From positions 1 to 63,473 of the forward strand of contig CAYNWG010000002.1 of NCBI GenBank assembly GCA_964400865.1: a stretch of DNA of 63,473 nt. The letters are read 5' to 3'. The number at the start of each line of letters is the position of its first letter. Position 1 is the stretch's first letter. This document shows, piece after piece, positions 5,859 to 63,306 of the stretch. The position numbers and the translations under genes were made by a program. The notes under the pieces were generated by a model, which searched no databases, was not told the origin of the DNA, and saw only the letters and a list, made by a program, of their open reading frames with translations. The stretch comes from an uncultured Pseudomonadales bacterium (GTDB taxonomy: Bacteria; Patescibacteriota; Microgenomatia; UBA1400; PJMF01).

Positions 5859-5864
5859 TAGACT
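5856..5864 (+). promoter_or_regulatory. Extended -10-like element TGaTAGACT, 6 nt upstream of the GTG start at 5871
   Basis: Read directly: tgatagact, then gatggc, then GTG. The TGA is also the stop codon of the upstream gene. Confidence 0.4.
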
Positions 5865-5870
5865 GATGGC

Positions 5871-8920: not shown

Positions 8921-8932
8921 CGAAGCACAACT

Positions 8933-9424: not shown

Positions 9425-9426
9425 TT

Positions 9427-10854: not shown

Positions 10855-10875
10855 CGTTTTGGTCAAAATACCCCA

Positions 10876-10905
10876 TTGACACTATGATTTTCCAGATGCT
10901 ATTCT
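10876..10905 (+). promoter_or_regulatory. Sigma70-like promoter TTGACA-N18-TATTCT (with TGc extended -10) upstream of the surface-protein gene
   Basis: Read directly in the 63-nt gap after sufB: ttgaca ctatgattttccagatgc tattct. Confidence 0.35.
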
Positions 10906-10917
10906 TGATCACAAGAA

Positions 10918-12537: not shown

Positions 12538-12542
12538 TTGTT

Positions 12543-26974: not shown

Positions 26975-27011
26975 ACTTACAATATTAACATTAATCGGAA
27001 AGGAATCCACT

Positions 27012-44451: not shown

Positions 44452-44501
44452 TATGTATCCCAATTAACATCGCTTTTAAGAGGGGAGCAGGATTCTTTTT
44501 G

Positions 44502-44923
44502 TGGAGATGACGAGGGATGACCTCGTGTCCGTGTCCAGCTAAAAAACAGCATCTACAGGTTTAGTTTCTCTTTAAGTGTGGAGCGCTTCGGTGAAGAAAC
44601 AAACCGTCAAGCGATCCCTTTGTACTATGGCTTACGACTACTCGGTACAAGCAAGTAATCAGTCACACTGGCTGAGTTTTCACCCACTCGCTCACACCAG
44701 TGAGATGAAACGAGTGAATGCCACTTATGCGTAAAGCATTTGTGGAGATCGGAAAGTGTCACCAAAATTGGCAACAGCAGTTCTTACTTGCGTAAGAATG
44801 CTTTTTCCACGACCGTTACTGGAGACAATGCCTTCAGTTATAGTTTTGGTCCTGTTAACGTCTTTTGACCAAAGACGACCTGCGACTGTTAAAGAGCGTG
44901 TCACGTCAAAGCAACACATCCCC
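44502..44923 (-). ncRNA. ssrA: tmRNA (transfer-messenger RNA), CCA not encoded
   Basis: On the minus strand, 5' GGGGATG pairs with 3' CATCTCC-A, giving a G3:U wobble (the Ala identity element). 5' GCUUUGACGUGA resembles GAUUCGACGGGA. The 3' end GGAC-ACGAG-GUCAUCC-CUCGU-CAUCUCC-A is collinear with the E. coli GGAC-GCGGG-UUCAACU-CCCGC-CAGCUCC-A. Candidate tag frame: GCC AAU ... CUU UAC GCA UAA = ANFGDTFRSPQMLYA. Confidence 0.8.
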
Positions 44924-47349: not shown

Positions 47350-47373
47350 AGCTGTATCAAGTATAACAGGGTG

Positions 47374-47447
47374 TGGTCGCACCAGGACTCGAACCTGGGA
47401 CCTCACGAATGTGAATCGTGCGCTCTAACCAACTGAGCTATGCGACC
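47374..47447 (-). tRNA. tRNA-Val (anticodon CAC), CCA not encoded
   Basis: Minus strand GGTCGCA-TA-GCTC-AGTTGGTTA-GAGC-G-CACGA-TTCACAT-TCGTG-AGGTC-CCAGG-TTCGAGT-CCTGG-TGCGACC-A folds as a canonical cloverleaf. Confidence 0.95.
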
Positions 47448-48543: not shown

Positions 48544-50354
48544 TCAGGTATTATAGCGAGTTCTTGTTGTAATTCAGCAACAGTCTCCTGATCTATACTA
48601 TTTGTGTACCATCCAAGTAAACTATCTAGGTACCGTTTGTAATACGCAGTTTCAGTAGGATTACTAATAGCAATATTTGTACTATCATCTAACCACCACC
48701 AGACCAGCGGATTCTTGAACTTTTGGTCATACCATGCTTTTTCTAGCAATAGACGAAATTGTGTAAATGAACTAATTCGATAGATCGAACTGGGAAGACT
48801 AGAATGATAATCGAGTAGGTAGGTTTGGACAAGGCCTTGATTTCGTTTCGTGATCAAGTGAGTTGTCACCTCGCCATCTTGATCATATGAATAGGTAGCG
48901 AACTCCAATTTATCGTTAGTAACTGATTGAACAGTCAATTGATACTGACCAGTAATGGGTTTAGCGATTGAGAGCGTTTTAAACCCACCTGTTGATTCGG
49001 TAGCGCCATCAGTACTGAAGGCGGAAATATGTTCGTCAATTTCAATTGCTACTTCTTCAGCTGGACCAACAATAGATACTTGGACAGCTGGATCGTAGAC
49101 CAGAAACAAATAGCTTAGGTCGGTATGACTTGGTAAAAACGTGCGAAAACTCAGCGGATTTACCTGATGTTGACTCAATAATGAATAGCTGTAAGCAGGA
49201 TCCTTGATAGTAAGATCATTTTGATTGGCTGAGACGCCATCAGCCACCATAAAATGACCGGGAATTTGAACCATCACTGGACGATGATTAGCTATTTCTG
49301 AAATTGCTGGGGTGAGTTGATTGACAGTATTCCAGTTGAATCGCCCATATTCTAAAGCTGGTGTACCATAAACACGGCTCAACTGCTTGGTTAGTCTAGT
49401 AGTGGCAAGAAAATTGACCAAACCTTCGCCTACATATCCGTCTGGCTGTAATTTTAACCAGTCATTCAGATTTGCGGGAGTTAGGGCTGTGCCATCTGAC
49501 ATTCTGGTTATACCGTGATACTGCATGATCATCACTAAGGAAGTTAGGGCACAGCCCCAATTATGTATTGTTAGTTTATTTGACCATTCGTGAGCATGGT
49601 CGTACTCTAGCTCACCCCAGTCTGGGTCATTTTGCTTTAAATGTGGTACTGTGGGGATTAGGTCACTTTCATCCAGAAGATACGCCACCAGATTATCAAA
49701 GCGAGTTACGCTCCGTCTGAGCGATCCAACCCCTGCTTCTAGACCGACTGTCAATGTTTCAGCAGCTAAATATGGAGTGGTATCTGTGACGAATAAAACA
49801 GTATGACCATCTATGGTAAGGCGAATTTGGTGATTCGCAAAAGAAATTTCTGCGTGATACTGCTGATTTACTTCAAAAGGATAGGTTGAAATTGAGTTAG
49901 CGAGTTCATGTTCCTGACCATCTATTACTTTTTGAACTCTGACTTCATTATTCGTTATTTTAATATCGTACCAATTATTTTCATCTACCCAGATAAAAAG
50001 TAAATTTCTATCCATGTTTATTGACTCCAAAAACGTTACATCAATTGCAAACAAATAGTTTTCTAAAGTTGCGATTGAAAAATTATTGGGAACAATTTCC
50101 ATTACGCAGGGTTTGCTATCAATCACTATTTGGGCTGTGCCGTCAATAATTTCCCAGTGGGCTGGTTGAGAAAGATTGGTGCAAACCCTGAGAGGGTATT
50201 GCCATTGCCGATTGCGAACCTCATGCCACTGATCAAAAACATGAGGATTATCAAACGTCTCAGTAAATACCATTGTTTTCGCAGTTACTCCTTGGGGATG
50301 AACCGCTATAATAAGACTGAGTACGAGTAGCACAAATCCAATTTGCATTTTCAT
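48540..50354 (-). CDS. Secreted protein with N-terminal lectin/LamG-like region and C39-like papain-fold peptidase domain
   Basis: Signal peptide. NWGCALTSLVMIMQYHGI (Cys nucleophile context of Peptidase_C39_2/YvpB-like proteins) and GHFMVADGV. Confidence 0.6.
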   Translation of the reverse strand: MKMQIGFVLLVLSLIIAVHPQGVTAKTMVFTETFDNPHVFDQWHEVRNRQWQYPLRVCTNLSQPAHWEIIDGTAQIVIDSKPCVMEIVPNNFSIATLENYLFAIDVTFLESINMDRNLLFIWVDENNWYDIKITNNEVRVQKVIDGQEHELANSISTYPFEVNQQYHAEISFANHQIRLTIDGHTVLFVTDTTPYLAAETLTVGLEAGVGSLRRSVTRFDNLVAYLLDESDLIPTVPHLKQNDPDWGELEYDHAHEWSNKLTIHNWGCALTSLVMIMQYHGITRMSDGTALTPANLNDWLKLQPDGYVGEGLVNFLATTRLTKQLSRVYGTPALEYGRFNWNTVNQLTPAISEIANHRPVMVQIPGHFMVADGVSANQNDLTIKDPAYSYSLLSQHQVNPLSFRTFLPSHTDLSYLFLVYDPAVQVSIVGPAEEVAIEIDEHISAFSTDGATESTGGFKTLSIAKPITGQYQLTVQSVTNDKLEFATYSYDQDGEVTTHLITKRNQGLVQTYLLDYHSSLPSSIYRISSFTQFRLLLEKAWYDQKFKNPLVWWWLDDSTNIAISNPTETAYYKRYLDSLLGWYTNSIDQETVAELQQELAIIPE

Positions 50355-51096
50355 GTTAAAAAAAATAGTTAACTTCTACGATCGCTATCATTTAAAAAAC
50401 CAAGCGTATTCAGGTGTGATTGCAAGAAATAATTTCACCTATTGGTATATTCTGCGAACCTTACACCAACCGCTACTTAAGCAACTCAAAAAATTTACAG
50501 TTTTGGATGTAGGTTGCGGGGTGGGAACTCTAGCACTCTACTTGGCTCAAATTTGTGAATCGGTAGTGGGAATTGATGTCTCAGAAAGAGCGATTGGCAT
50601 TGCTAAGCAAGCCAAGCAATCCACGCAGAGCCACAATTTGATTTTCAAGCAGTCGCTACTTAAGCAATTTTCAACAAAATTCGATTTAATCATTTGCACA
50701 GAAGTGATAGAGCATGTACCGAATCCTCCGTATTTCGTTGAGTTACTCGTTAACAATCTTGAATACAAGGGATGGTTATTACTTTCTACGCCAAATCGGG
50801 ATAATTGGTTAACCCGGATTGGTTATTATCGTAATTTTGATCAGGAGGTTGGCCATTTACGACGTTACTCAGTCTCAGAAATTTGCCAACTGCTCGAACA
50901 GAATGGTCTTAAGGTGAAACATAAAGAGACGGTTGAGGGTCCGCTCAGATCATTATTGTTCACTTCCAAGCTAGGAATACTGATAAAAGTGATTAAAGGA
51001 CCATTAATTCCACTATTTCATCGTTTAGACGAGATATTTGGAAACATATTTGGTAACAGCGATATAGTGATTCTTGCTCAGAAACAAACAAAATGA
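50353..51096 (+). CDS. Class I SAM-dependent methyltransferase
   Basis: VLDVGCGVGTL motif I, DLIICTEVIEHV. Confidence 0.8.
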   Translation: MLKKIVNFYDRYHLKNQAYSGVIARNNFTYWYILRTLHQPLLKQLKKFTVLDVGCGVGTLALYLAQICESVVGIDVSERAIGIAKQAKQSTQSHNLIFKQSLLKQFSTKFDLIICTEVIEHVPNPPYFVELLVNNLEYKGWLLLSTPNRDNWLTRIGYYRNFDQEVGHLRRYSVSEICQLLEQNGLKVKHKETVEGPLRSLLFTSKLGILIKVIKGPLIPLFHRLDEIFGNIFGNSDIVILAQKQTK

Positions 51097-52139
51097 ATAT
51101 CTTATTTCTTACACCGAAATATACGCCGGCGTTGGGAGGTGTGGAAACTCACGTTCAAAAAGTTAGTCGCGAGTTGTTGAAAAAGGGACATCACATAACT
51201 ATTATCACGTCTCAAACAGATGCTGTACTGCCTTTGAGTGAGGAAATTGATGGCGTGTCTGTATATAGAATTCCGTTAGAGATTTCACAGCAAAAAATTG
51301 CTACGTGGCGATGGATAAAAGTCAATCAAGCATTGTTTCAAACTGCAGATAGGGTGCATGTACATGATGTTGGATGGTGGCTTCTACCCGTTGTACCAAT
51401 AGTACAACACAAATTAAGTACCACTTTTCATGGATGGGAGGGGCGCTGGCCGATACGGTGGCAAGCTAAGTTACACCGTTGGGTGTTGGCAAAACTGAGC
51501 AAGAAAACCATTCACATCGGTAGTTGGATTCAAGAATTCTACTGGGATAAACCCTCAATGACGCTTTTCGGCGGTGTTGATCGGCGAAGAATATTAGTTG
51601 TAGAAACCCAAAAAAAGCCCAAAGATAAAAAAATACTCAAAATAGTATTTATAGGAAGACTAGTCAAGGAAAATGACATTGCATCATATTGTCATTTTTT
51701 GGACGTTTTAAATGAAAAACAAATTGGCTTTAGAGTGCACTGGGTGGGAGATGGCCCGTGGAGAACGACTTGTGAGAAGTATGGGAAAGTTCTGGGCATG
51801 GTAACTCAACCAAAGGAGTTTCTGATTAAAGCAGACGTAGTTTTTGCCAGTTCCTATTTAAGCATATTACTTGCAAGATCTATGGGAAAGCCGGTTTGGG
51901 CAATGTACTCACAACCCCTGAAACAACGGTATTTGACATCACTTCCAAACAAAGAAGCAATGGTAATCGCCGGCACGGCGGATGAATTATTACAAGCAAC
52001 CTATGATGAACAAGCAATGAGTTGGAAACCAGTTGTAATATCACCTCGCTATTTAACAGATTGGCCACCGACGTGGAAGGAGGTGGCCACTGCGTATGAA
52101 ACTCTCTGGCAAAGTATGAGTAACGATGAGAAAAAATAA
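51093..52139 (+). CDS. Glycosyltransferase, GT4-like (GT-B fold)
   Basis: MNILFLTPKYTPALGGVETHV N-terminus is typical of GT4. The C-terminal half is divergent. Confidence 0.6.
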   Translation: MNILFLTPKYTPALGGVETHVQKVSRELLKKGHHITIITSQTDAVLPLSEEIDGVSVYRIPLEISQQKIATWRWIKVNQALFQTADRVHVHDVGWWLLPVVPIVQHKLSTTFHGWEGRWPIRWQAKLHRWVLAKLSKKTIHIGSWIQEFYWDKPSMTLFGGVDRRRILVVETQKKPKDKKILKIVFIGRLVKENDIASYCHFLDVLNEKQIGFRVHWVGDGPWRTTCEKYGKVLGMVTQPKEFLIKADVVFASSYLSILLARSMGKPVWAMYSQPLKQRYLTSLPNKEAMVIAGTADELLQATYDEQAMSWKPVVISPRYLTDWPPTWKEVATAYETLWQSMSNDEKK

Positions 52140-53808
52140 CAATCAATCACTGAAAATAAATTTAGGTTGTGGATCTGACTATCGCCAAGGCTGGGTAAAT
52201 ATAGATGCTTTGGAAGAATATAAGCCGGATATTATTCATGATTTACACTCAGCTCTGCCATTGGCAGATAAATCGGCTGAATATGTATTAGCTCAAGACA
52301 TTCTTGAGCATTTTACCAAAGAAGATTTATCGCGCTTACTCTCAGATCTGAGTCGGGTAACGAGGAATGAAGGGCTCATTGAAATCAGAGTACCGAGTGT
52401 AGCGGCAATTACAGATAGACTGCGAAAATATCCAGAGGCAAGAAACCAATTTCTATATGGCACGACGGCACATACGGGAATTTTTGGAGCTCACAAAGTT
52501 GGATTTTCACCAGAGTATTTAGTTTACTTATTTCTGAGCAACGGCTTTACTTTAAAAAGCTGGAAATTAGAAGACACCAATTATCATGCTGTGTTTAAAA
52601 AAACGAATCAACGAGAGATATTGAAAACGTTAACAATAGTAGCCCATACTTTTGGTTTGGGTGGAGCAGAGCAGTTTATTACTCAGCTAACAGAAGATTT
52701 TGCAAAGCGAGGGATACAAGTTGAAGTGTGGACCAATCACAAACCTTGGATTACGCTGTTGCAAACAAAAAAATTACTAGCAAAAAAAGTGCCAATTGCA
52801 ATTGATATTATCGGTGATTGGAAGGGTTTACTCAAAGCTTCTTTGTTACTTCCTCTAGTTTTGATTACTGATGGTTGGATGGTGTGGCAAACCAGAAAAT
52901 CAAATGCTATCCTATTGTCTGGATTTTCGCAAAAGTTAACTGTTTCTTTATGGGCGGCGTTGTGGCGCCGCCCCCTCATTTGGATCGAATTTGGACCACT
53001 CGAATCGGTACTGAAAAAATTTGGCCAACTACCCAAGTTGGCGTATTACCTAGCAAAAAAACTTCCACAAATACTAATTGTCCCTTCGTTCCACACATTT
53101 CAGCATCTGATTAGTGGAGCTAAGATTGATTTAGCCAAGTTGCGCACTATTCCCTGCGGAGTATCAGTTCCTAATGACCGATTCAGTCGCCCATCAACTA
53201 TTCCAAACAGAGTGGTATGTGTATCACGTTTAGAGCCAGGTAAGGGTCAGGATCGTTTAATCGTTGCATTCAAAGCTGTGGCGAAAGCAATTCCCACCGC
53301 CCATCTGAGAATCATTGGTGAGGGTGGCTTCGACCAAACCTTGCGCCAACTGATTGAAAAAAATCAATTAACCAAGCATGTAGAACTAGTTGGTAGAGTA
53401 CCAAATTCACTCGAAGAAATGAAACAAGCTGAGATTTGTGTCATTCCATCTACTTGGCAGCTTGAGGGATTTGGTTTAACAGTAGTCGAAGCAATGATGT
53501 TGGCAAAACCCGTAATTATTTTTGATATACCACCACTGAATGAACTAGTTGAAAACGAAGTGACGGGTCTGATAATCAATGACGATGCATCCCAAAATGA
53601 ATTACAGCTTTCAAAATCAATTATTCGATTGCTGAAAGATGCTCAATTACGAGAGAAACTGGGAAGATTAGCAAGAAAACAGGTGAATCTGAAGTATTCA
53701 TTTGAACAAATTGGTTCATCGTATATTGAAGCAATCGAGGAAGCAATGCAACGAATGCAAGCCAGAGAACAACTTAAAAGAGTAGGTTGGAGTGCATACA
53801 ATGAATAA
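52126..53808 (+). CDS. Fusion protein: N-terminal SAM methyltransferase-like domain + C-terminal GT4 glycosyltransferase
   Basis: INLGCGSDYRQGWVNIDA and DILEHF in the first ~165 aa, then TFGLGGAEQF ... EGFGLTVVEAMMLAKPVI (GT4 E-x7-E region). Confidence 0.75.
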   Translation: MRKNNNQSLKINLGCGSDYRQGWVNIDALEEYKPDIIHDLHSALPLADKSAEYVLAQDILEHFTKEDLSRLLSDLSRVTRNEGLIEIRVPSVAAITDRLRKYPEARNQFLYGTTAHTGIFGAHKVGFSPEYLVYLFLSNGFTLKSWKLEDTNYHAVFKKTNQREILKTLTIVAHTFGLGGAEQFITQLTEDFAKRGIQVEVWTNHKPWITLLQTKKLLAKKVPIAIDIIGDWKGLLKASLLLPLVLITDGWMVWQTRKSNAILLSGFSQKLTVSLWAALWRRPLIWIEFGPLESVLKKFGQLPKLAYYLAKKLPQILIVPSFHTFQHLISGAKIDLAKLRTIPCGVSVPNDRFSRPSTIPNRVVCVSRLEPGKGQDRLIVAFKAVAKAIPTAHLRIIGEGGFDQTLRQLIEKNQLTKHVELVGRVPNSLEEMKQAEICVIPSTWQLEGFGLTVVEAMMLAKPVIIFDIPPLNELVENEVTGLIINDDASQNELQLSKSIIRLLKDAQLREKLGRLARKQVNLKYSFEQIGSSYIEAIEEAMQRMQAREQLKRVGWSAYNE

Positions 53809-54760
53809 ACCCGAAAAATCTTCTAGTGTTTCAATCATCGTAACCATTCTAAATGAAGTTCAGACGATTGATGAATTACTTGAATCACTTATTACACAAA
53901 CCATCAAACCAAAAGCAATTGTAATCACTGATGGGGGATCAACTGATGGCACTTGGGAAAAATTACTCGGATGGCAGCAAAAAAAATCATCAATACAATT
54001 AGTAGTCCAACAGGTAAACGGCAATCGCAGTATTGGCAGAAATCATGCGATTCAGTTAACCGATACTGAGTTAATCGCTTGTACCGACGCTGGTTGTGTC
54101 CCTGAGAGTACTTGGTTGGCAGAGCTAGTTGAAGAAGAAAAGAAGAGTCACGCGTTGGTCGTGGCTGGTTACTATAAAGGCATGCCAAAAAGTGATTTTC
54201 AATCTGCCCAAGTTCCCTATGTTTTGGTCATGTCTGATCGACTTAATTCAGCGGAATTTTTACCAGCCACACGGTCTGTGTTGTTTCATAGACAGTGGTT
54301 TATGGAAAACGGGGGCTTCGATGAATCCCTATCTGATAATGAGGATTACGCTCTGGCCAGAAAGATTCAAGCTATTCAACTTCGGACGGGGAAAAATATT
54401 TTGAGTTTTACAAAAAATGCTGTGGTGGGATGGCGCCCGCGCAGAACACTACGCGAATTTATCTGGATGATCTTTCGCTTTGCTCGCGGTGATGCGCGGG
54501 CGCACCTTTGGCGACCAAAGGTCGCACTGATATTTCTGAGATATTTTATATATCTCAGCTTTGTAATGATGACTTTGGTTTTGCAGTCATCATTGTTTTT
54601 AGTTATAAGTGTTTTGGCAGCCAGCGCGTACGTACTTTGGTCGATAGCTAAAAATTTCCGATATGCTCAGTCAGCCTGGTATTGGCTGCCAATCCTTCAA
54701 ATTACCAGTGACTTTGCAGTTATGTCTGGTACAATCGCAGGACTTGCCTACAAGCGATAA
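53792..54760 (+). CDS. GT2-family glycosyltransferase with C-terminal TM segments
   Basis: VSIIVTILNE, TDGGSTDGT, DAG, DNEDY. Confidence 0.8.
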   Translation: MHTMNKPEKSSSVSIIVTILNEVQTIDELLESLITQTIKPKAIVITDGGSTDGTWEKLLGWQQKKSSIQLVVQQVNGNRSIGRNHAIQLTDTELIACTDAGCVPESTWLAELVEEEKKSHALVVAGYYKGMPKSDFQSAQVPYVLVMSDRLNSAEFLPATRSVLFHRQWFMENGGFDESLSDNEDYALARKIQAIQLRTGKNILSFTKNAVVGWRPRRTLREFIWMIFRFARGDARAHLWRPKVALIFLRYFIYLSFVMMTLVLQSSLFLVISVLAASAYVLWSIAKNFRYAQSAWYWLPILQITSDFAVMSGTIAGLAYKR

Positions 54761-54774
54761 AAAGCTATATCACT

Positions 54775-55758
54775 ATGTCAATATTTAGAAAAGAAAAGGG
54801 TGAGGCCCAAAAACCAAGACCAGAATTACCCTTTGAAATTGACTTAGCTTATTCTGGAATTCTACGAAATGTTATTACATCTCTCATTGAAGAAATACAG
54901 AGTGGAGTAAAAAAAACTTCAAAAAAAGGTGGTATTTGGATATTAAAGGAAATAGAACGACATCCCAGGATTATCAGTGAAATAGCGTCACTTCTGATTG
55001 AAGGAATACCTACAGATATTAAAGAAGAATATATAGCTACGATTGCGCAAGCAATTATTGATAATAAAAAGGTTGTTTTGCTTGGTCCGCATTGGAGTGT
55101 GGTGGACTCCGCTGCTTTTATAAAAGTGGTTCAGCTATTAAACAAATATTTTAAAGAACAGGGCATAGATAGAAAAGTTGTTCTGATGGGTCCTGCTTCA
55201 TCAAAGTTCTTTGATTACCGCATGTTTGCTTCAGCTGTAATTAAAGCGCTCAAGCGCAATGGTATTGAATTACTACAGGTTGCGCAGTTGCAGGACAAAG
55301 AACTAAGAGAATCAATTGGTGCCGATGCAATAAATAAATTGAATCGATCTACTTGGAAAAAAATATTAATCGGCATGCGTCGTGAGGGAAAAATACTTGG
55401 GATCTTTCAAGAGGGTTCTCGGGCAAAAGGACAAGGAACAGAGGAGGCCCCTATTGAAGTTTTGGATGCAATTGAAACGATCATGGATCCTGATTCATTG
55501 TTAGTACCCGTAATGACGGTTGGTAGCGATTTATTTTTAGGACCGGACGACCAATTCCCAGATGTAACACATTGGCCAAGAATTGTAATGGCAAAACCGT
55601 TGACCTTGGCAGAAGCTCGATTATGGTCGAAAGACATTAATACCCATCCAATTGATGTGGCTAGAGTAGTAGTACTAGCAAATCAAGAGGAGAAATATTG
55701 GGGTGTCTTGGCGGAATCAATTGAGCAATACCGAAGTATTAACAATGAAAACACTTGA
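54775..55758 (+). CDS. PlsC/LPLAT-like acyltransferase
   Basis: GPHWSVVD (Hx4D) and FQEGSRAKG (FPEGTR-like) at appropriate spacing. Confidence 0.55.
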   Translation: MSIFRKEKGEAQKPRPELPFEIDLAYSGILRNVITSLIEEIQSGVKKTSKKGGIWILKEIERHPRIISEIASLLIEGIPTDIKEEYIATIAQAIIDNKKVVLLGPHWSVVDSAAFIKVVQLLNKYFKEQGIDRKVVLMGPASSKFFDYRMFASAVIKALKRNGIELLQVAQLQDKELRESIGADAINKLNRSTWKKILIGMRREGKILGIFQEGSRAKGQGTEEAPIEVLDAIETIMDPDSLLVPVMTVGSDLFLGPDDQFPDVTHWPRIVMAKPLTLAEARLWSKDINTHPIDVARVVVLANQEEKYWGVLAESIEQYRSINNENT

Positions 55759-56263
55759 AATTAGCAAACAAATTGTCATAAAAACAACTCGCAAAAGCTG
55801 GGATGTTGCAACAGCTCCCTGGCGATTAAGTCTGCATACAATCAATGCCCTCGCTGATTTATTGGTTGAGAATTCAGATTATGATGTTAAGCGCAAACTA
55901 ATAGCAGAAGGATTAAGCGAGTTACATGCTATGTTTAAGGAATCGCATCGCAAGGTAGAACACCGAATGGCGGGTGAAACTGAAGTTTATACTATGAAAA
56001 TAAATGAAAGATACACAGTAATTTTCTATTTTAAAAAACAACTAGTTGGGTATAAAGTCAGTGTAGAAGAACGATTAGTTGCCGAGTATGGCAAGATTGA
56101 ATCTACATTGTTTGGACCGTTATTTCTTGCAGAGCACTTAGGCACCTTTCGTCCATATGTACATGGGGACAGGATCAGTCCCACTCATGAGCTATCCGAA
56201 AAACAAATGCTTAATCTTGTGGAATTGTTGCAGGATGTATTTAACGAGTTGGGTAGTACATAA
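55745..56263 (+). CDS. Hypothetical protein
   Basis: ORF. The ATG at 55745 (MKTLEISK) is preferred over the listed 55703 start. Confidence 0.4.
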   Translation: MKTLEISKQIVIKTTRKSWDVATAPWRLSLHTINALADLLVENSDYDVKRKLIAEGLSELHAMFKESHRKVEHRMAGETEVYTMKINERYTVIFYFKKQLVGYKVSVEERLVAEYGKIESTLFGPLFLAEHLGTFRPYVHGDRISPTHELSEKQMLNLVELLQDVFNELGST

Positions 56264-56327: not shown

Positions 56328-56840
56328 TTATTCTTGACCAAATCCTTGACCAAGTCCTTGACCATGCATACCTCTACCTTTGCCACCACCCATTGAGCCT
56401 CTTTCAGGCATTACATCACTAAGATCAATACCGTTTGACTCTGCCCAACTATCAAGCGAGTCATGTTCGGCTTGACGTTTTGCTTGCCACTCTTCCTTTG
56501 TCATGGCTTCTTTGTTGGCAAAATCAGCCTCGTGTTGTGCTTGCAGTTCAGCATGTTTCGTAACAACTAACTGTTTTTGAGCTTCAGTTAATTTGCCCTC
56601 TGATACTGCAGCGCCCAATCGAGATTCAAACTCAGCTTCGCGAGTTTCTTGTTGTTCGGTTCTGTACTGATTGAATACTGTTTGAACTTCAGTTTCGCTT
56701 TTGCCAAAGGTTGTGGCTAATTTTTGAATCAGCACATCATGCTGACCTCCGCCGTTAAATGCCATGATTTGGTTAGCCCCATACATGGTGATAGCAGTGA
56801 CTGCCACTGCGGCGATGGGAAGTAAAAGCTTTGCTTTCAT
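56328..56840 (-). CDS. Secreted helical protein with Gly-rich C-terminal tail, downstream of the two-component system
   Basis: Signal peptide MKAKLLLPIAAVAVTAITMYG, charged helical repeats, tail GGGKGRGMHGQGLGQGFGQE. Confidence 0.55.
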   Translation of the reverse strand: MKAKLLLPIAAVAVTAITMYGANQIMAFNGGGQHDVLIQKLATTFGKSETEVQTVFNQYRTEQQETREAEFESRLGAAVSEGKLTEAQKQLVVTKHAELQAQHEADFANKEAMTKEEWQAKRQAEHDSLDSWAESNGIDLSDVMPERGSMGGGKGRGMHGQGLGQGFGQE

Positions 56841-56987: not shown

Positions 56988-58007
56988 TTAGCTCAAGGGA
57001 AGTTGGATGGTAAAGGTGCTACCAATACCAACAATTGAGCTGGCGCTCAGCTTACCGTGGTGTTGCAAAATAATCGACTCAGCAATTGATAAACCAAGCC
57101 CATAACCATCCGCAGCTTGTTTATTTCTGGATTGATCTGCTCGGTAAAAACGTTTAAATACGTGAGGTAAGTCTGCTTCAGCGATTCCAAGGCCTTGATC
57201 CTTGATTGATAGGTGGACCATTGATTTTGACGAGGTTACTGCAATTGTAACTTGTGATTTGCTTGGGCTATATTTGATGGCATTATCTACCAACGTCAGA
57301 ATTGCTTCTTTGAGCATACCTTGATTAGCTTTTACCAGTAACAATTTTTTTGGTTGTTTAATTACTAATGCAATTTGTTTCTTTTTGGCTAGTCCGGAAA
57401 TAGTTTTCAGTACCTCAGTCAGAATCGGTTGAAATGAAATCTCTTTCAGTTCAATTGGCTGACCTTCAATTTGAGCCAAATTAAGTAGTTGATGACTGAG
57501 TGATTCAAGCTGGATAACGTCAGTCAGATTTTCTTTCAAAATCTGTTTTGTTTCTTTTGATAAAGAATTATCAAGTAAATTCACTTCCATCGAAGTTTTT
57601 AAAGCAGTAATGGGCGTTCTGAGTTCATGGGCGGCGTCACCCACAAATTGTTTTTGGGCCTCGTGAGTTTGCTGAATGGGCTTGAGAGTTTTCCCGGTGA
57701 GCCAATAGCTGACGATTGAAAAGAAAGCAACAACAAATAAATTAATGCTGAGTAACTGCCAAACGATTTGCTCTTTGGCTTCGGTCAAGTCCTCAATTGT
57801 GATGTGTCTACCCATACCAGCGCCAGGTGGAGGGGGCATGCCAATCCACTCGCGCTCTATTCGCCGATTAATCCGTTCATATTCTGCGGAAATAACTTGA
57901 GTTGTTCTGAAATAAAATAGGACACTAATGCTGGCTGTAATTGCCACTACGGTACTAACATACCAAAAAGTAAGTTTAATCCGAGCTGATGCAAACAGTG
58001 GGTTCAT
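56988..58007 (-). CDS. Sensor histidine kinase
   Basis: Two TM segments, H-box AAHELRTPITAL, N-box DNAIKY, G-boxes DQGLGI and GYGLGLSI. Confidence 0.9.
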   Translation of the reverse strand: MNPLFASARIKLTFWYVSTVVAITASISVLFYFRTTQVISAEYERINRRIEREWIGMPPPPGAGMGRHITIEDLTEAKEQIVWQLLSINLFVVAFFSIVSYWLTGKTLKPIQQTHEAQKQFVGDAAHELRTPITALKTSMEVNLLDNSLSKETKQILKENLTDVIQLESLSHQLLNLAQIEGQPIELKEISFQPILTEVLKTISGLAKKKQIALVIKQPKKLLLVKANQGMLKEAILTLVDNAIKYSPSKSQVTIAVTSSKSMVHLSIKDQGLGIAEADLPHVFKRFYRADQSRNKQAADGYGLGLSIAESIILQHHGKLSASSIVGIGSTFTIQLPLS

Positions 58008-58678
58008 TTTTCTCCAAATTGATAGCCAAAACCTCTTACAGTTTTGAGTAGCGGTGGTGATTTAAAAGGCTGATCAATTTTCTTTCTCAAGTAACCAATG
58101 TAGACTTGAGCGGTATTAGGTAGCACATCACTATCATACGCCCAAACTTGTTGGGTAATTTGATCGATAGTAAGGACTTGGTCTTTATGGCGAGCAAAAA
58201 ATTCAAGCAATGCAAATTCTTTTTTAGATAAGGTGATGGGTTGTTTGGCCCGAATGACTTGAAAATTAGAGGTATCTATGGTCAAATCAGCAACTGTGAT
58301 TACTGCAGACTCGCGGGCTTTAGGCCGCCGGCCCAAAGCCCGCACCCTTGCCAACAGTTCGGTAAACGCAAATGGTTTACCCAAATAATCATCTGCGCCA
58401 GCCTCCAAACCTGTCACACGGTCTTCAACCTGAGTTTTTGCAGTCAATAACAAAATCGGAACATGGTTATTTTCATCACGGAGCTTTTTGATAACAGTAA
58501 TGCCATCAAGTTTTGGCAACATTCTATCCAAAATTATTACGTCGTACTTTTCTGAGGATGCTAGGTCATATCCAGCCTCGCCATCGTAAGCCAGATCAAC
58601 CACATGTGATTTTAATTCCAGACCCTTTTTGATATACGTTGCAATTCTGTGCTCATCCTCAACAACTAATAGTTTCAT
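58004..58678 (-). CDS. OmpR-family response regulator
   Basis: MKLLVVEDE, DVIILDRMLP, LLLTAK, winged helix LTLSKKEFALLEFF...VRGFGY. 4-nt overlap with the kinase gene. Confidence 0.92.
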   Translation of the reverse strand: MKLLVVEDEHRIATYIKKGLELKSHVVDLAYDGEAGYDLASSEKYDVIILDRMLPKLDGITVIKKLRDENNHVPILLLTAKTQVEDRVTGLEAGADDYLGKPFAFTELLARVRALGRRPKARESAVITVADLTIDTSNFQVIRAKQPITLSKKEFALLEFFARHKDQVLTIDQITQQVWAYDSDVLPNTAQVYIGYLRKKIDQPFKSPPLLKTVRGFGYQFGEK

Positions 58679-58738: not shown

Positions 58739-59863
58739 CTAGTTGATCAGATGCGATTGCGCGCTCAACTTAAGAAGATTCATTTCTAAATTGCCGTCTT
58801 CTGTATCACTACCATGCACTAAATCTTGGCTAAATGGTGTTTCAGTTGAAAGTGCTCGAATTGTGGGAGCCCATTGTTCACGAATAGTAAGTTTCATATC
58901 TCTCGCGGATGATTGTCCACGTAACACTAATGCAGTAACTGGTCCAGTTGTCATGAAATTGCAGTACGCTTCACCCCAATCGTAGCCTGCCAAATCTTCC
59001 GACCACATCGCACCAGAAGTAGTTCGTGACAAACGTAATGTACGTTTACCAATAAGTGTATTCCGGGTCAGTTCCTGTATTTGATTTGAAAGATTGGTTT
59101 GGTCGCCTGGGTCCAATCTATCGAATTCTGGTTTTAAGAGCGCTACCGAAACATCATCTGTGGTTAAAAAAGTACCGTGTAAATCAAATGTTGGTTGACT
59201 TAAGACTTGTAATAATAGGCTTGACATCAGGGGGGAAGTAATACTTGCAGTATGCTGAGCGTCTACAAAAACAGTTTGTCCTCCCAATTCAAGATGCTGC
59301 TCCATTATTGATTCGACAGTTTGTAAATACCTCAACTCGTCAGCGTTTAGGGGTTTTTCGCCTCGGGCTACAACTCTTTTCATCATTTCTTGATCTGAAA
59401 TTCTTAGAAATAAGGTTAAGCTAGGAATTACTAATAATTTTGCTAAATTGAGGAGCCAATCGCTATCATCTTCACAAATTATTTTTGATTCCGTTCGTGA
59501 GGCCGCCAGTCTTGCAGATTGATACCCATAGAAAGAAAGTGGGCCTCTGTCAATTATTGAAACTTTTCCCCTGTCTTTTGCACCGACCACATCTTTTAGT
59601 TGCAGTAATAAATCTCCAGCTAAAATTAATGCATCTGCCTCTGGAGATGTACCTTTACCATCAAAGGAAAGGAATCTCTGCTCACGTATTTGCCTTCTCA
59701 TTAAATTGCCAGTTGCATAGCCAGAAAACTCTCCCTGCCTGAGAACATCTACACCTTTCTTCTTTAGTAGTCGACTCACGTTCGATTCTAAAGTCGATTT
59801 GCCAGTCGCATCTCTACCATCAAAAAAAATCGTATGTGGTTGGAAGTCAGTAGACCTTGTCAT
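58739..59863 (-). CDS. Fusion of thymidylate-kinase-like P-loop NMP kinase (N-terminal) and nucleoside-diphosphate-kinase-like domain (C-terminal)
   Basis: N-terminal half: IFFDGRDATGKST (compare EG.DG.GKST), IIDRGPLSFYGYQ (compare DR...S..AYQ), PSLTLFLRISDQEMMKRVVARGE. C-terminal half: VALLKPE, FMTTGPVTALVLRG, LVHGSDT (compare NxxHGSDS of NDK). Confidence 0.7.
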   Translation of the reverse strand: MTRSTDFQPHTIFFDGRDATGKSTLESNVSRLLKKKGVDVLRQGEFSGYATGNLMRRQIREQRFLSFDGKGTSPEADALILAGDLLLQLKDVVGAKDRGKVSIIDRGPLSFYGYQSARLAASRTESKIICEDDSDWLLNLAKLLVIPSLTLFLRISDQEMMKRVVARGEKPLNADELRYLQTVESIMEQHLELGGQTVFVDAQHTASITSPLMSSLLLQVLSQPTFDLHGTFLTTDDVSVALLKPEFDRLDPGDQTNLSNQIQELTRNTLIGKRTLRLSRTTSGAMWSEDLAGYDWGEAYCNFMTTGPVTALVLRGQSSARDMKLTIREQWAPTIRALSTETPFSQDLVHGSDTEDGNLEMNLLKLSAQSHLIN

Positions 59864-61113
59864 AATAATTCGTTTTTATTCAAAATTACTTTTTCAATAG
59901 CATCTGCATACATTTCGACTATTGAACGATCTTCTGAATTAACCCAGACTGGAATCTTTATTGCAGTAGCAAAAAACTTCTCAGCTACTGGAAAATCTCC
60001 AGGGTTATAACCAAATACATTTTGATACTGAGGGAATAACTCTCCTGGATTTTGGAATAGTGGTAGTAAGTTAAGCGGACAGGTGGAACCTGGCATATCG
60101 GCATCGACGCATCCCTCTGCTTTAATAGCTTGGTACATTTTCTCGACAGGAATATCTCCCAACTCTTTTTCATTAAAACGTATAATGTAGGCATACCATG
60201 CAGGATCCTCACCTTCTTGAACTTGAGGAACAGACACTTCACTATACTTACTCATTCTTTGCGACAAATAATTGGCATAGATATTTTTTTGTTGGTGCCA
60301 CTTTGAGAGTTGGCTTAATTGTTCGTTGGCAATGGCTATAGCTAGAGGGTGAGCTCTTAACTTCAAGCCCATTCCGGTTACCGAATATTTTGAGTAGGGG
60401 TGGTCTTTAGGGATTTCTTGAGCGCATCTTTTATTGTAATGTCCTAATAGTAGAGCTCGATAATATATTTCTTCGTCATCTGTAACAAGTATGCCACCTT
60501 CCCCTCCAGTGATAATTTTCTGACCTTGTAAACTCCAAGCAGCTGCAGAACCCCAGCTACCAAGCGGTTTATTTTGGAAATTTCCACCGTGTGCATGGCT
60601 GCAATCTTCGAGTAATTTCAAATTATGTTTACTACAAAATTCTTTGATACTAACCATATCGCATGCACGACCCCACATATGAGTAACCATCACTGCTTTT
60701 GTTTTTTCTGTAAGTTTTTTCTCTAGCTCAATTGGGTCGATGTTTCCATTTTCATTTTTTGCGTCACATAATACTGGAATAGCTCCAGTTTGAAGGATCG
60801 GAGTCACTGTGGCGTAAAAAGTGTAGGCTGGGCATAAAACTTCATCACCAGGTTTAAGACCAATTCCAACATACAGAGAGTGCAGCGCTGAAGTGCCAGA
60901 GCTAGTAACTAATGCAAATTTTTTACCGATTATTTTTGCAAACGTGTCTTCGAACTCCGCAAAAATACCAGAGCGATTGTATATTGAAACAGTTTCGTCA
61001 ATTTGATTTATCACTGCTGCTTTGGTTGCTTCCGTAACTACAGGCCAAGGAAAATGAGATTGTGGTGGATTCTTTAGCAATGGTTCACCGCCATTTATAG
61101 CTAGTTTTTTCAT
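59860..61113 (-). CDS. DegT/DnrJ/EryC1/StrS-family PLP-dependent aminotransferase (417 aa)
   Basis: LVTSSGTSALH, DEVLCPAYTFYAT, EDCSHAHG, SLQGQKIITGGEGGILVT (PLP Lys context). Confidence 0.88.
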   Translation of the reverse strand: MKKLAINGGEPLLKNPPQSHFPWPVVTEATKAAVINQIDETVSIYNRSGIFAEFEDTFAKIIGKKFALVTSSGTSALHSLYVGIGLKPGDEVLCPAYTFYATVTPILQTGAIPVLCDAKNENGNIDPIELEKKLTEKTKAVMVTHMWGRACDMVSIKEFCSKHNLKLLEDCSHAHGGNFQNKPLGSWGSAAAWSLQGQKIITGGEGGILVTDDEEIYYRALLLGHYNKRCAQEIPKDHPYSKYSVTGMGLKLRAHPLAIAIANEQLSQLSKWHQQKNIYANYLSQRMSKYSEVSVPQVQEGEDPAWYAYIIRFNEKELGDIPVEKMYQAIKAEGCVDADMPGSTCPLNLLPLFQNPGELFPQYQNVFGYNPGDFPVAEKFFATAIKIPVWVNSEDRSIVEMYADAIEKVILNKNELL

Positions 61114-62099
61114 AATTGTTTTATCTTGATTGATTTATTTGTACTGATTGATTGATAGCAAGCTTCAATAAATTTCATTGTATGCACATGTGTGTCGGCA
61201 GACAATTTACTTTCAGAATCGAAAAGTAAGACATTGGCAAAATGATCTATGGGTTTTTCTATATCAGTACTTATAAAAGATTCAATTTGTTCTCCATTGT
61301 TGTTTAGCAATCTGGCCTCATTCTTTTTTATTTCAACAATTCCACTGCTGCCGGTAATTTTTAACAGTTCGTCTTTTGGGCCACTATATCTAGATATTAT
61401 TAATGTGCCGTGAGCTTGTAGAGCTGATTCATAAGAAAAATGAATTGTGGCAGTATCCTCAGCTGTATAGTTGACAGTCGAGATCGCTTCAGTTGATGCG
61501 TGGGCAGCAATATGATCTGGCATTCCCAAAATGTTGGTAACCATATCGATTAGATGATAGCCCATATCCATTATGCAGCCACCGCCCGATATATCTTTCG
61601 ATCCCCTCCATCCAGATTCGGGATGTTCTATAAAAATTCTGTAATATCCTTCAATCAAAAATGGATTGCCAATTTTTGTTAAATATTCTTTTGCTTTTGC
61701 AATGTGCGGAAACAATCTTCTCTGAGCATTAATTAGTAATTTTAAATTGTGTTTAGTAGAAAAAGTAATTAGCTTTTTAAGATCGTTTGAGCAAAGTGCG
61801 ACCGGTTTTTCTTTAAATATATGCTTCTTATTTTGTAATGATTCCATAGTTGTAGAAAAATGATGATTGTGGGGAACTGCAATGACAACAGCATCGTACG
61901 GTATATTGGATCTTTCAAGATCTGACAATTTGTTAAAAATCGGTACATCTAGATATGTATCGGTAGTGAATGGGTCGACTATCGCAGATAAAGTTAAATA
62001 TGGATTGTTTTCTATTGCAGGCAAATGATCAGATTTGGTTTGACCTCCAAAACCTACAATTGCAACATTGATATTATTGTTAAGAAATTTATTTTGCAT
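61110..62099 (-). CDS. Gfo/Idh/MocA-family NAD(P)-dependent oxidoreductase
   Basis: N-terminal Rossmann VAIVGFGGQ, KHIFKEKPVA (EKP motif), C-terminal alpha/beta domain. Confidence 0.85.
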   Translation of the reverse strand: MQNKFLNNNINVAIVGFGGQTKSDHLPAIENNPYLTLSAIVDPFTTDTYLDVPIFNKLSDLERSNIPYDAVVIAVPHNHHFSTTMESLQNKKHIFKEKPVALCSNDLKKLITFSTKHNLKLLINAQRRLFPHIAKAKEYLTKIGNPFLIEGYYRIFIEHPESGWRGSKDISGGGCIMDMGYHLIDMVTNILGMPDHIAAHASTEAISTVNYTAEDTATIHFSYESALQAHGTLIISRYSGPKDELLKITGSSGIVEIKKNEARLLNNNGEQIESFISTDIEKPIDHFANVLLFDSESKLSADTHVHTMKFIEACYQSISTNKSIKIKQL

Positions 62100-62565
62100 A
62101 GTTAAATACAGATAAAACAGACTCTTTCATTTCTGATGTCATCTGAAACACATCATTCTGAATATCTATTCGCTGCGCCCATGTGTGAGAAGAGTGTTCT
62201 GACAAGTGAATATCTTCCATTTGGCTAGTGGGTGAAAAGATAAGGTTGATTTGCCTCGATTTACCTTTTTCAGTGTCATAATCAAAACCATGAACGATCA
62301 TGATCAGATCATCAGACACTACTCTGATCGATGTTTCTTCAAGCAGTTCACGAATAGCTGCATCAACCAAGCTTTCATCTGGCTCAACCAAGCCACCGGG
62401 TAATTCGTAATTATTCGGATAGGAATCATCTGCTTTTCTTTTTACTAGTAAAACTGAATTAGTATTAAATACAGCAATTCCTACTACAAACCTGGCGATT
62501 GAGTCGTTTTGACTTAATTTGAAAACCTCATTTTCTGATTTATATACATAACCGCTATGTATCAT
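62089..62565 (-). CDS. NUDIX hydrolase, first gene of the operon
   Basis: GGLVEPDESLVDAAIRELLEETS Nudix box. 11-nt overlap with the oxidoreductase gene. Confidence 0.85.
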   Translation of the reverse strand: MIHSGYVYKSENEVFKLSQNDSIARFVVGIAVFNTNSVLLVKRKADDSYPNNYELPGGLVEPDESLVDAAIRELLEETSIRVVSDDLIMIVHGFDYDTEKGKSRQINLIFSPTSQMEDIHLSEHSSHTWAQRIDIQNDVFQMTSEMKESVLSVFNYAK

Positions 62566-62571
62566 TTGTAA

Positions 62572-62577
62572 ATATTA
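62572..62577 (-). promoter_or_regulatory. -10-like TAATAT, 6 nt upstream of the ATG at 62565 (minus strand)
   Basis: The minus strand reads gagtaatat, then ttacaa, then ATG. No SD. Confidence 0.35.
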
Positions 62578-62742
62578 CTCTGATAAAGCAAGAATGTCAA
62601 TACCCTATATTAAATTTGTTATAGCAAGTAATCACCGTAATAGCAGATCGGAATGAAATGATTGTGACATGAATACTGATGTAAAAATAAATTAATATAA
62701 GCTTAATAACATATAACAGACGTATTCGAAAGATTGGATAGT

Positions 62743-62754: not shown

Positions 62755-63306
62755 ATGGTCTCAAAAGTCAAACATACGCTGAAATTAGTTAACCAACCAT
62801 TTGGAAACCTGCGGTTTCGTGATAGAACAGCTCTGATTTTGTGTAGAGATGAATCTGGCAAGTTGTTGCTTGGTAGAGAAGATGGGTTTTATCCACCAGG
62901 CATATTTAGAATGATTGGTGGCGGGATTGATGAGGGTGAAGCTGTGATTGAGGGCACCATTAGAGAAGTGAAAGAAGAAATTGGTTTGGATGTGAGAAAA
63001 GATGACTTAATTGCAGTAGCTGAAGTTGAATTGGAGGGTTTGTATCATGAAAAAGTCTATGCCACAAAAATATTTGTATATTTTTTGAAGGTTATGTTGG
63101 CTGAGTGCGTGGCGAATGATGACGTTTCTGAACTGGTGAGTTGCACGGAAGATGAATATCGATCGCTGGTGGAGCGATTTTTTGAGTTGCGTGACGATCA
63201 TATCTATAAAAAAGACGGCTTTGAATTTTCTTGGGGAGATTATGGTAGAGCATATGGTTTTATACACAAACTAGCTTTGGATGAAGTTATCAAAAGAGGT
63301 TTATAA
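62755..63306 (+). CDS. NUDIX hydrolase (divergent from the operon)
   Basis: GGGIDEGEAVIEGTIREVKEEIG Nudix box. Confidence 0.85.
   Translation: MVSKVKHTLKLVNQPFGNLRFRDRTALILCRDESGKLLLGREDGFYPPGIFRMIGGGIDEGEAVIEGTIREVKEEIGLDVRKDDLIAVAEVELEGLYHEKVYATKIFVYFLKVMLAECVANDDVSELVSCTEDEYRSLVERFFELRDDHIYKKDGFEFSWGDYGRAYGFIHKLALDEVIKRGL

Follow-up and report, generated by a model that had tools for sequence, protein, structure and literature searches.

The window analysed here, a 63,473-nt stretch of DNA from an uncultured member of the Patescibacteriota (contig CAYNWG010000002.1), carries at 58739-62565 on its minus strand an operon of four overlapping genes, which encode a Nudix hydrolase, a Gfo/Idh/MocA oxidoreductase, a DegT-family aminotransferase and a kinase that joins a thymidylate kinase-like (TMK-like) and a nucleoside diphosphate kinase-like (NDK-like) domain in one chain. 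Comparison of the encoded proteins points to a relative of the pur10/pur4/pur7 (adgB/C/D) pathway that is coupled to a kinase and would make a 3'-amino-3'-deoxy-nucleotide and re-phosphorylate it to the triphosphate, a reading to which we give somewhat better than even credence. The Pur/Adg 3'-aminonucleoside pathway is the known kind, whose phosphatase and exporter features the module appears to lack; the coupling to kinases seems to be new, and the literature searched, incomplete in its coverage, yielded no relevant description of such a kinase-coupled module.

Architecture of the operon

The four minus-strand open reading frames (ORFs) of the original prediction lie where it had placed them, and Pfam confirmed their order as Nudix, Gfo/Idh/MocA, DegT and TMK-like~NDK-like (a tilde marks a fusion). 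The first gene encodes a Nudix hydrolase of 158 aa (62089-62565; Pfam NUDIX, E 1e-16), the second a Gfo/Idh/MocA oxidoreductase of 329 aa (61110-62099; GFO_IDH_MocA N- and C-terminal domains, E 6e-16 and 5e-18), the third a DegT-family aminotransferase of 417 aa dependent on pyridoxal phosphate (PLP; 59860-61113; DegT_DnrJ_EryC1, E 1.5e-75), and the fourth the fused kinase of 374 aa (58739-59863; Thymidylate_kin, E 4e-12, and NDK, E 7e-4, the latter a weak match under the gathering score). Overlaps of 11, 4 and 4 nt were read directly from the sequence: the ATG of gene 2 stands 8 nt ahead of the TAA of gene 1 (62089-62099), and ATGA tetranucleotides connect genes 2 and 3 (61113-61110) and genes 3 and 4 (59863-59860), the oxidoreductase gene adjoining the aminotransferase gene in translational coupling. 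None of the four operon proteins reached an NCBIfam equivalog cut-off.

The leaderless-type promoter that had been claimed ahead of the first gene corresponds to a promoter-like site, TTGACA-17 nt-TAATAT (62572-62600, minus strand), which agrees with the consensus at 10 of 12 positions and ends 6 nt 5' of the first ATG (62565). It is the best-scoring site of the region, in which such matches are in total no more numerous than in shuffled sequence; as a consensus match only, it makes a leaderless transcript for the operon plausible. By Pfam, the operon holds neither a nucleotidyltransferase nor a glycosyltransferase, and the only gene of the inositol monophosphatase (IMPase) family in the window, at 26946-27833, is present about 30 kb away and unlinked, both as originally stated.

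Conservation of the module across lineages

A search with the aminotransferase returned about 2000 relatives, the best 120 of which were all at least 51% identical to it; the nearest ones belong mainly to Patescibacteria and DPANN archaea, and others to cyanobacteria, Chloroflexi, Bdellovibrionales and actinomycetes. As module loci we took those fetched loci in which aminotransferase identity to the window reaches 40% or more (n = 31, of which 27 are non-redundant), and as controls 63 loci with more distant DegT genes (aminotransferase identity <38%); most of the controls belong to other taxa, whose genomes are larger, and the enrichment p-values given below are therefore rough. Homologues of the oxidoreductase (28-47% identity) and of the Nudix hydrolase (30-45%) were found beside the aminotransferase in 29 of the 31 module loci, versus no control with such an oxidoreductase or Nudix neighbour (0/63). 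The lineages concerned, counted as seven bacterial ones plus DPANN archaea, are Patescibacteria, Saccharibacteria, Nostocales, Anaerolineales, Bdellovibrionales, Streptomyces/Nocardia/Pseudonocardia/Microtetraspora and one Aenigmatarchaeota archaeon. The proposal that the genes form one unit is thus borne out, with a linkage far beyond chance that is kept in the loci of relatives and across phyla.

The complete order Nudix-Gfo-DegT-TMK~NDK is kept on contigs whose aminotransferases are 93%, 68% and 64% identical to that of the window, with orthologous TMK~NDK fusions at the same operon position in loci L001, L002/L003 and L004. Down to 64% aminotransferase identity the kinase is this same fusion, and further out separate TMK-like or NDK-like genes occur instead, in the orders Nudix-Gfo-DegT-TMK (L096), Gfo-DegT-Nudix-TMK (L099), NDK-Gfo-DegT-Nudix (L098), TMK-Gfo-DegT-Nudix (L033) and TMK-Nudix~Gfo-DegT (L097), while L021 has two TMK genes. 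Of the 27 non-redundant module loci, 8 have a TMK-like partner, which none of the 63 controls has (p = 3e-5), and 4 have an NDK-like one (p = 0.007). These counts leave out a TMK gene that lies one gene from the module in Nostocales, which is unlike the module's TMK-like subfamily and may be a housekeeping enzyme. In more distant relatives the first three genes are kept, arranged as Gfo-DegT-Nudix in Nostocales, as Nudix-Gfo-DegT-MFS-AAA_28 in Anaerolineales and as alaS-HTH-Gfo-DegT-Nudix on a Streptomyces plasmid (HTH, helix-turn-helix), and neighbouring domains are repeatedly fused: Nudix~Gfo in L097, DegT~Nudix in P0097, Nudix-DegT-Nudix in L021 and TMK~NDK in the window.

Exceptions among module-like loci are in part trivial in cause. 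One locus (L088), in which neither a Gfo nor a Nudix neighbour was detected, is a 3.9-kb contig fragment; a Bacillus thuringiensis plasmid locus has a different NAD oxidoreductase instead, plus a MazG-like gene; and a Woesearchaeota locus combines a Nudix domain fused to the aminotransferase with a radical SAM gene and has no Gfo gene.

A second Nudix domain recurs with the module. In the window it is a 183-aa hydrolase with a perfect Nudix box (Pfam E 1e-11), encoded divergently on the plus strand at 62755-63306 and kept at the same position in L001 with 79% identity; others are found in L009, L011, the L021 fusion and the P0097 locus. Its membership in the module is suggested by this recurrence, and it is possibly an accessory part that serves as a safety valve or carries out another step of the pathway.

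Genes for Gre-factor-like proteins (PF01272) abut the module in 5 of the 27 loci versus 0 of the 63 controls (p = 0.002). The five loci are unrelated (L004:10380-10862 on the minus strand, L023:6373-6936, L097:4354-4839, L098:8675-9190 and also L020), and the proteins, 160-187 aa long, belong to the GreA/GreB family and share a conserved tip, D-x-H-D-N-A, similar to the acidic one of GreA. Such a linkage would be sensible if the module's product stalls RNA polymerase, since a transcript-cleavage factor could rescue the enzyme; the Gre-like protein could accordingly serve as self-protection of RNA polymerase from a 3'-blocked transcript, or could simply be a housekeeping greA product.

A role of the genes as a nucleotide-modification module of phages was also considered and was rejected, because no homologue above 29% identity was found in phage genomes.

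Affinity of the enzymes to adg-type clusters

The Nudix hydrolase (158 aa) has an intact Nudix box, G-x5-E-x7-REUxEE; the oxidoreductase has a GxGxxG-like N-terminus and the motifs EKP and SGGGxxxDMGYHLID; and the aminotransferase has its Schiff-base Lys199 in SLQGQK and a clade-specific GHYNKR motif. The operon shows the enzyme features of the Pur/Adg type, namely a DegT aminotransferase, an adjacent Gfo/Idh/MocA dehydrogenase and a Nudix hydrolase. In Photorhabdus luminescens, adgB-E are homologues of pur10, pur4, pur7 and pur3, and the adg genes yielded 3'-amino-3'-deoxyguanosine in E. coli (PMC9239236). The adgA-E cluster contains the same three enzyme families, in the order Gfo, DegT, Nudix that many module relatives also have, together with the IMPase-type monophosphatase AdgE and the MFS exporter AdgA, whereas the window operon has neither of the latter two, begins with its Nudix gene and carries the TMK-like~NDK-like kinase. 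In agreement with this difference, none of the 31 module loci has an IMPase homologue closer than 3.5 kb to its aminotransferase, and ORF and Pfam analysis found no exporter in or beside the window operon, an MFS gene being present solely in the relatives from Anaerolineales and B. thuringiensis. The chemistry proposed for pur consists of an NAD-dependent 3'-oxidation of a nucleoside triphosphate (NTP), transamination and pyrophosphohydrolysis by a Nudix enzyme (PMC11641026). What is proposed for pur10/pur4/pur7/pur3 of Streptomyces alboniger and for the ataP and cst homologues is the same chemistry that we propose for the window operon; the pur genes differ in lying within a larger tailoring cluster (methyltransferases, aminoacyl ligase, acetyltransferase) that leads to a peptidyl nucleoside, and no such tailoring genes are found here.

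The sequence reference for the adg type was a cluster on the 6.3-kb plasmid pBMSBPS2 of Candidatus Pantoea carbekii, found by tblastn of plasmids, whose sole cargo is Gfo/Idh/MocA, aminotransferase, NUDIX and inositol monophosphatase genes in adgB-E order; a similar cluster resides on a plasmid of the Plautia stali symbiont. The adg-type plasmid proteins start with MKISIIGC or MKVAVIGC versus MKLVIIGC deduced from the published adg primers, and they end in ...IVNALN* versus ...VIASLNS* from those primers (PMC9239236).

The window aminotransferase is 38.6% identical to the adg-type one over 391 aa (294 bits), whereas the best match among solved structures reached 143 bits, BtrR-type enzymes about 128, AHBA synthase 105, NtdA 97, and WbpE (3nu7) 92 bits in a partial alignment. 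For the oxidoreductase the adg-type comparison gave 25% identity and 74-79 bits, versus 56 bits for the best PDB chain, 28 bits for WbpB (3o9z) and 36-39 bits for 3q2i and 3q2k, which we take to be WlbA. The Nudix hydrolase is 34% identical to the adg-type plasmid Nudix over 70 aa. The aminotransferase and the oxidoreductase therefore do not nest in the UDP-sugar clades: they fall outside the WbpE and the WbpB/WlbA groups, and their adg-type scores are far higher. The sole full-length PDB match of the aminotransferase, 8GYH, is Fic25 of ficellomycin biosynthesis and was set aside as uninformative.

Neighbour joining of 87 DegT proteins separated the aminotransferases of the module, those of the adg type and the two fused ones from actinomycetes (L094 and L095) from the 58 others in 55 of 60 bootstraps, a monophyly that is obtained with the adg-type and L094/L095 sequences in the tested set and fails without them. 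The motif G[HQ][YF]NKR is limited to this module/adg-type clade, and none of the 58 control DegT proteins has it; a variant, GHFRVR, is present in the B. thuringiensis aminotransferase relative. Likewise, SGGG...DMGYH(L/I)(I/V)D is common to module and adg-type oxidoreductases. Comparison, and comparison only, thus favours the view of the original prediction that the operon may carry out a pur-like synthesis of an amino-nucleotide.

The fused kinase and its divergent NDK-like domain

The TMK-like domain, of the nucleoside monophosphate (NMP) kinase type, spans aa 12-204 (59252-59830, minus strand) and contains the P-loop GRDATGKST and a DRG...YQ motif; the NDK-like domain spans about aa 236-366 (58766-59158, minus strand), with His350 in LVHGSD and Asp347 in place of the canonical Asn. 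The AlphaFold model of the kinase has a mean predicted local distance difference test (pLDDT) score of 78.7, which rises above 90 for residues 230-370, and Foldseek matched the model to the TMK fold (target TM-score 0.75) and also to NDK-domain radial-spoke proteins. The NDK assignment is supported by this confident modelling, by the Foldseek matches to NDK domains, and by the LKPE and HGSD motifs, which are kept in the orthologues. A profile of five orthologous kinases retrieved PDB thymidylate kinases at no better than E 1e-5 and one NDK at E 8e-3.

An ordinary dTMP/NDP housekeeping enzyme was not recognized in this protein, which is far below the NCBIfam cut-offs for dTMP kinase (TIGR00041, 44.6 versus 83.25 bits) and for NDK (NF001908, 17.4 versus 155), belongs to a rare subfamily and keeps its linkage to the module. 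When 1.84 billion cluster representatives were searched exhaustively, no more than 170 relatives came up, most of them stand-alone proteins of either the TMK-like kind (about 220 aa) or the NDK-like kind (about 140-165 aa). The closest relative of the kinase, with 82% identity, is annotated as Candidatus Woesebacteria, which places the source organism among the Patescibacteria. Canonical TMK and NDK have in common with the window kinase their folds, the P-loop, the DR motif and the catalytic His of HGSD; the window kinase differs in being fused and highly divergent, and in two substitutions of its NDK-like domain that are described below.

We aligned 32 NDK-like sequences, among them those of the window and its orthologues; the rest are stand-alone proteins, namely the NDK of L098 and 27 relatives. 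The catalytic His117 (E. coli Ndk numbering) is present in 32 of 32, and Lys11, Ser119 and Glu128 in nearly all. Asn114, the ribose-binding residue three positions ahead of the catalytic His, is replaced by Asp or Glu in every sequence (32/32; Asp347 before His350 in the window), giving the subfamily motif F-x-x-D-[LI]-[VI]-H-G-S-D (window 58814-58825; P0123-P0264; L098:5548-6009); in addition, Tyr51 is replaced by Trp in all members but one, and several phosphate-binding residues are unaligned. Canonical NDK is very poor on 3'-modified nucleotides and is a known bottleneck in the activation of 3'-modified nucleoside drugs. In human NDPK-B, Asn115 and Lys12 hydrogen-bond the 2'- and 3'-hydroxyls of the ribose (PMC10853775). 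An acidic residue in place of the Asn would fit the binding of a protonated 3'-amine.

PADLOC matched the kinase to VakA over the P-loop only (E 1e-5) and the Nudix hydrolase to PDC-S07; these signals of a defence system are weak and generic and were discounted.

Proposed pathway and its weight

In the proposed pathway the Gfo/Idh/MocA enzyme, as the counterpart of Pur10/AdgB, would oxidise the ribose 3'-OH of an NTP to a 3'-keto-NTP with NAD+, and the DegT aminotransferase, as that of Pur4/AdgC, would convert the 3'-keto into a 3'-NH2 group by means of PLP on Lys199. The Nudix hydrolase, as the counterpart of Pur7/AdgD, would act as an NTP-to-NMP pyrophosphohydrolase and split pyrophosphate off either the keto intermediate or the aminated product; it may work before or after the aminotransferase, an ambiguity shared with the adg and pur literature. 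The TMK-like domain would then convert the 3'-amino-NMP to the diphosphate, and the NDK-like domain, via phospho-His350, the diphosphate to the triphosphate. The adg and pur pathways release a nucleoside by means of a phosphatase and an exporter, and the victim's own kinases activate it (PMC9239236). Here the kinases would replace the IMPase-type phosphatase and the exporter, the end product being an intracellular 3'-amino-NTP that could act as a polymerase chain terminator, with the Nudix enzyme or enzymes limiting self-poisoning. As the phosphatase is swapped for NMP and NDP kinases, the product is expected to be kept at, or returned to, the triphosphate level, and activation of the product is the role that we infer for the kinase; an alternative role would be the supply of the NTP substrate. 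The purpose, be it antiviral chain termination, antagonism to a host or competitor, or something else, is speculative. In concept the module would resemble pVip with its nucleotide kinases, in which an enzyme that alters the ribose 3' position of an NTP to yield a chain terminator is likewise encoded beside NMP kinases; pVip uses a radical dehydration, whereas the window operon would use oxidation and transamination and has, by Pfam, no radical SAM gene in or near it.

Besides the roughness of the enrichment p-values, several points weigh against this pathway. The Pantoea plasmid cluster was equated with adgB-E by its architecture and the primer-encoded peptide ends only, so the comparison with adg and pur runs via an uncharacterised plasmid cluster and not via the authentic Pur10/Pur4/Pur7 or AdgB-D. 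The similarity of the Nudix hydrolase to the adg type is short, and the oxidoreductase, at just 25% identity, is a weak homologue from which substrate specificity cannot be derived. The argument from the Asn-to-Asp change hangs on one contact in canonical NDK structures. A Nudix hydrolase and kinases in one operon could run a futile cycle unless their specificities differ; in the window, neither a Gre-like gene nor an exporter or a phosphatase accompanies the operon; and genes for glycosyltransferases, PMT_2, Wzy and hexapeptide acetyltransferases lie near the loci of the Candidate Phyla Radiation (CPR), including GT4 and GT2 genes of the window at 51093-54760.

A wider hypothesis, which we regard as possible but doubtful, is that of a widespread system that makes 3'-amino-3'-deoxy-NTP terminators inside the producer, an oxidation-transamination counterpart of viperin with kinases adapted to a 3'-ammonium ribose (Asn to Asp in the NDK), Nudix enzymes as safety valves and, in some lineages, rescue by Gre; such a system would protect CPR and DPANN organisms from viruses or arm them against their hosts. 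If the synthesis is confirmed, 3'-aminonucleotide chemistry would reach beyond the few antibiotic clusters of Streptomyces and Photorhabdus into Patescibacteria, DPANN archaea and other carriers, in which little secondary metabolism is known and few defence systems have been recognised. The kinase-bearing form would, moreover, leave its product phosphorylated as a ready-made chain terminator, which would be a second natural route, besides that of viperin, to antiviral nucleotide analogues. Practical enzymes would also come of it, since the NDK-like subfamily may bypass the bottleneck of 3'-modified drugs by a single Asn-to-Asp change.

Alternative functions of the operon

The alternative that survives best, though we judge it unlikely, is a 3-amination of a sugar nucleotide or sugar phosphate for a surface glycan or a kanosamine-like product, in the manner of WbpB/WbpE, GnnA/GnnB, RifL/RifK or NtdC/NtdA, with the Nudix hydrolase cleaving or policing the NDP-amino-sugar and TMK~NDK recycling NMP to NTP. 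WbpB/WbpE, GnnA/GnnB and RifL/RifK indeed show the same pairing of Gfo/Idh/MocA and DegT enzymes, and sugar-nucleotide chemistry is similar, Pur10 resembling RifL (PMC11641026); those systems, however, have no Nudix and no nucleotide kinases, and their similarity to the window enzymes is far lower than that of the adg type (92 bits for WbpE and 28 for WbpB versus 294 and 74-79). Partial NCBIfam matches were obtained to UDP-GlcNAc 3-dehydrogenase (60 bits) and PseC (198 bits), all of them far under the cut-offs. The genomic context of the CPR copies speaks for glycans, with PMT_2 in L001 and L097, Polysacc_synt, epimerase and GT2 in L002, and hexapeptide acetyltransferase, Wzy_C, GT2/GT4 and PMT_2 in L004, and in the window itself a cluster of a methyltransferase, GT4, a methyltransferase-GT4 fusion and GT2 lies at 50353-54760 on the plus strand, opposite to the operon and 4-8 kb from it. 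CPR genomes are, however, generally rich in glycosyltransferase genes, so that adjacency weighs little, and the hexapeptide acetyltransferase and glycosyltransferases sit in separate, differently oriented operons of some CPR relatives. Furthermore, a nucleotidyltransferase or glycosyltransferase is found in none of the operons, and an N-acetyltransferase, UDP-sugar dehydrogenase or epimerase is absent by Pfam from that of the window; the module occurs free of glycan genes in Streptomyces, Nocardia, Nostocales, Anaerolineales and one Aenigmatarchaeota archaeon; and the adg-type sister cluster, with its IMPase, is all that the 6.3-kb plasmid carries. Amination of a sugar would also leave the Asn-to-Asp change of the NDK-like domain and the linkage to Gre-like genes unexplained.

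We attach very little probability to the synthesis of an aminocyclitol, in which a StrI/IolG-like oxidation of inositol and a StsC/BtrR-like amination would be followed by phosphorylation by the kinase, as in streptidine. Among NCBIfam models the oxidoreductase comes nearest to inositol 2-dehydrogenase (iolG), but its 80 bits are far from the cut-off of 355, and the approximately 128 bits obtained with BtrR-type 2-deoxy-scyllo-inosose aminotransferases leave the adg-type enzymes much closer. The L021 protein that ends in GGGIHCSTVD, a motif presumably amidinotransferase-like, would suit this chemistry; on the other side, the kinases, with their TMK and NDK folds, are of the nucleotide type rather than sugar or APH kinases, the module has no linked inositol-phosphate synthase, and the fusions of Nudix domains to the aminotransferase or oxidoreductase in relatives imply a substrate that contains a nucleoside diphosphate. 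Scarcely credible, finally, is a chance operon of a MutT-like Nudix hydrolase and dTMP/NDP kinases for house-cleaning and salvage beside an unrelated sugar-modifying pair: the Nudix hydrolase does match MutT-type models weakly and overlaps of unrelated genes are frequent in compact CPR genomes, yet the gene order is kept across phyla, domain fusions occur and the kinase is both of a rare subfamily and far under the equivalog cut-offs (44.6 versus 83 and 17 versus 155 bits).

Further genes in related loci

Two loci of archaeal/DPANN type, L021 and P0097, have a MoaA/viperin-like radical SAM gene beside the aminotransferase~Nudix fusion, and this enzyme, though not orthologous to Gfo, could supply the keto intermediate; the PADLOC models of pVip match only the radical SAM core of the archaeal neighbour. 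The L021 cluster (4903-13512; Candidatus Woesearchaeota) comprises a MoaA/viperin-like radical SAM gene and genes for a 377-aa protein, a TMK, a 716-aa Nudix-DegT-Nudix protein, a second TMK and a B12-binding radical SAM protein, with no Gfo oxidoreductase in the cluster. It is the 377-aa protein that ends in GGGIHCSTVD, an ending that we assume to resemble those of amidinotransferases such as StrB1.

On megaplasmids of Bacillus thuringiensis/cereus (L010:1079-9826), a 41%-identical aminotransferase is accompanied by another NAD(P) oxidoreductase, an MFS transporter and a 589-aa protein, and by a MazG-like pyrophosphatase, a protein of the class I tRNA-ligase family and a GNAT protein, and the locus looks like an uncharacterised aminoacyl-aminonucleoside (puromycin-like) gene cluster. 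On plasmid pSGZL of Streptomyces sp. 769 (L009:3411-11509), an extra alanine-tRNA ligase gene lies beside HTH-Gfo-DegT-Nudix and a second Nudix gene, and this ligase could be for resistance or biosynthetic. Partners such as these, from nucleotide metabolism or translation, speak for the amino-nucleotide reading, as do the radical SAM partners described above. Neighbouring tRNA-ligase genes are striking on the Streptomyces and Bacillus plasmids; in CPR and DPANN genomes they could be there by chance and were given no weight.

Aminotransferases of the same clade with an N-terminal domain of about 230-300 aa are encoded on plasmids of Streptomyces europaeiscabiei (L094:8302-13751) and Nocardia (L095:8134-13493), in the neighbourhood of genes for a formyltransferase, endonuclease/exonuclease/phosphatase-family proteins, a nucleotidyltransferase, an aldo/keto reductase and a Nudix hydrolase; these loci represent another uncharacterised cluster of nucleoside type. 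A gene for a Uma2-family endonuclease is a few kb or less away from the module both in Nostocales (L005:5459-6115) and on the Streptomyces plasmid (L009:13811-14368), a proximity that may be coincidental.

Other features of the window

An OmpR-type response regulator and a histidine kinase are encoded at 56988-58678 on the minus strand; they begin 60 nt past the end of the operon's kinase gene, and the gap has no terminator-like site. Since the response regulator is kept at this position in the closest relative only (L001, 87% identity), the two-component genes probably stand outside the module. Two further ORFs, at 56328-56840 (minus strand, 170 aa) and 55703-56263 (plus strand, 186 aa), had no Pfam match; in the 170-aa product, whose ORF adjoins the two-component system, the N-terminus is hydrophobic and the tail Gly-rich (GGGKGRGMHGQGLGQGFGQE).

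A tmRNA gene was located at 44499-44923 on the minus strand (Rfam, 82.5 bits), and a tRNA-Val(CAC) gene at 47373-47447 on the same strand. The latter overlaps the called start of a TPR-protein ORF (45682-47406), and on account of this overlap the start of the ORF has probably been called too far upstream.

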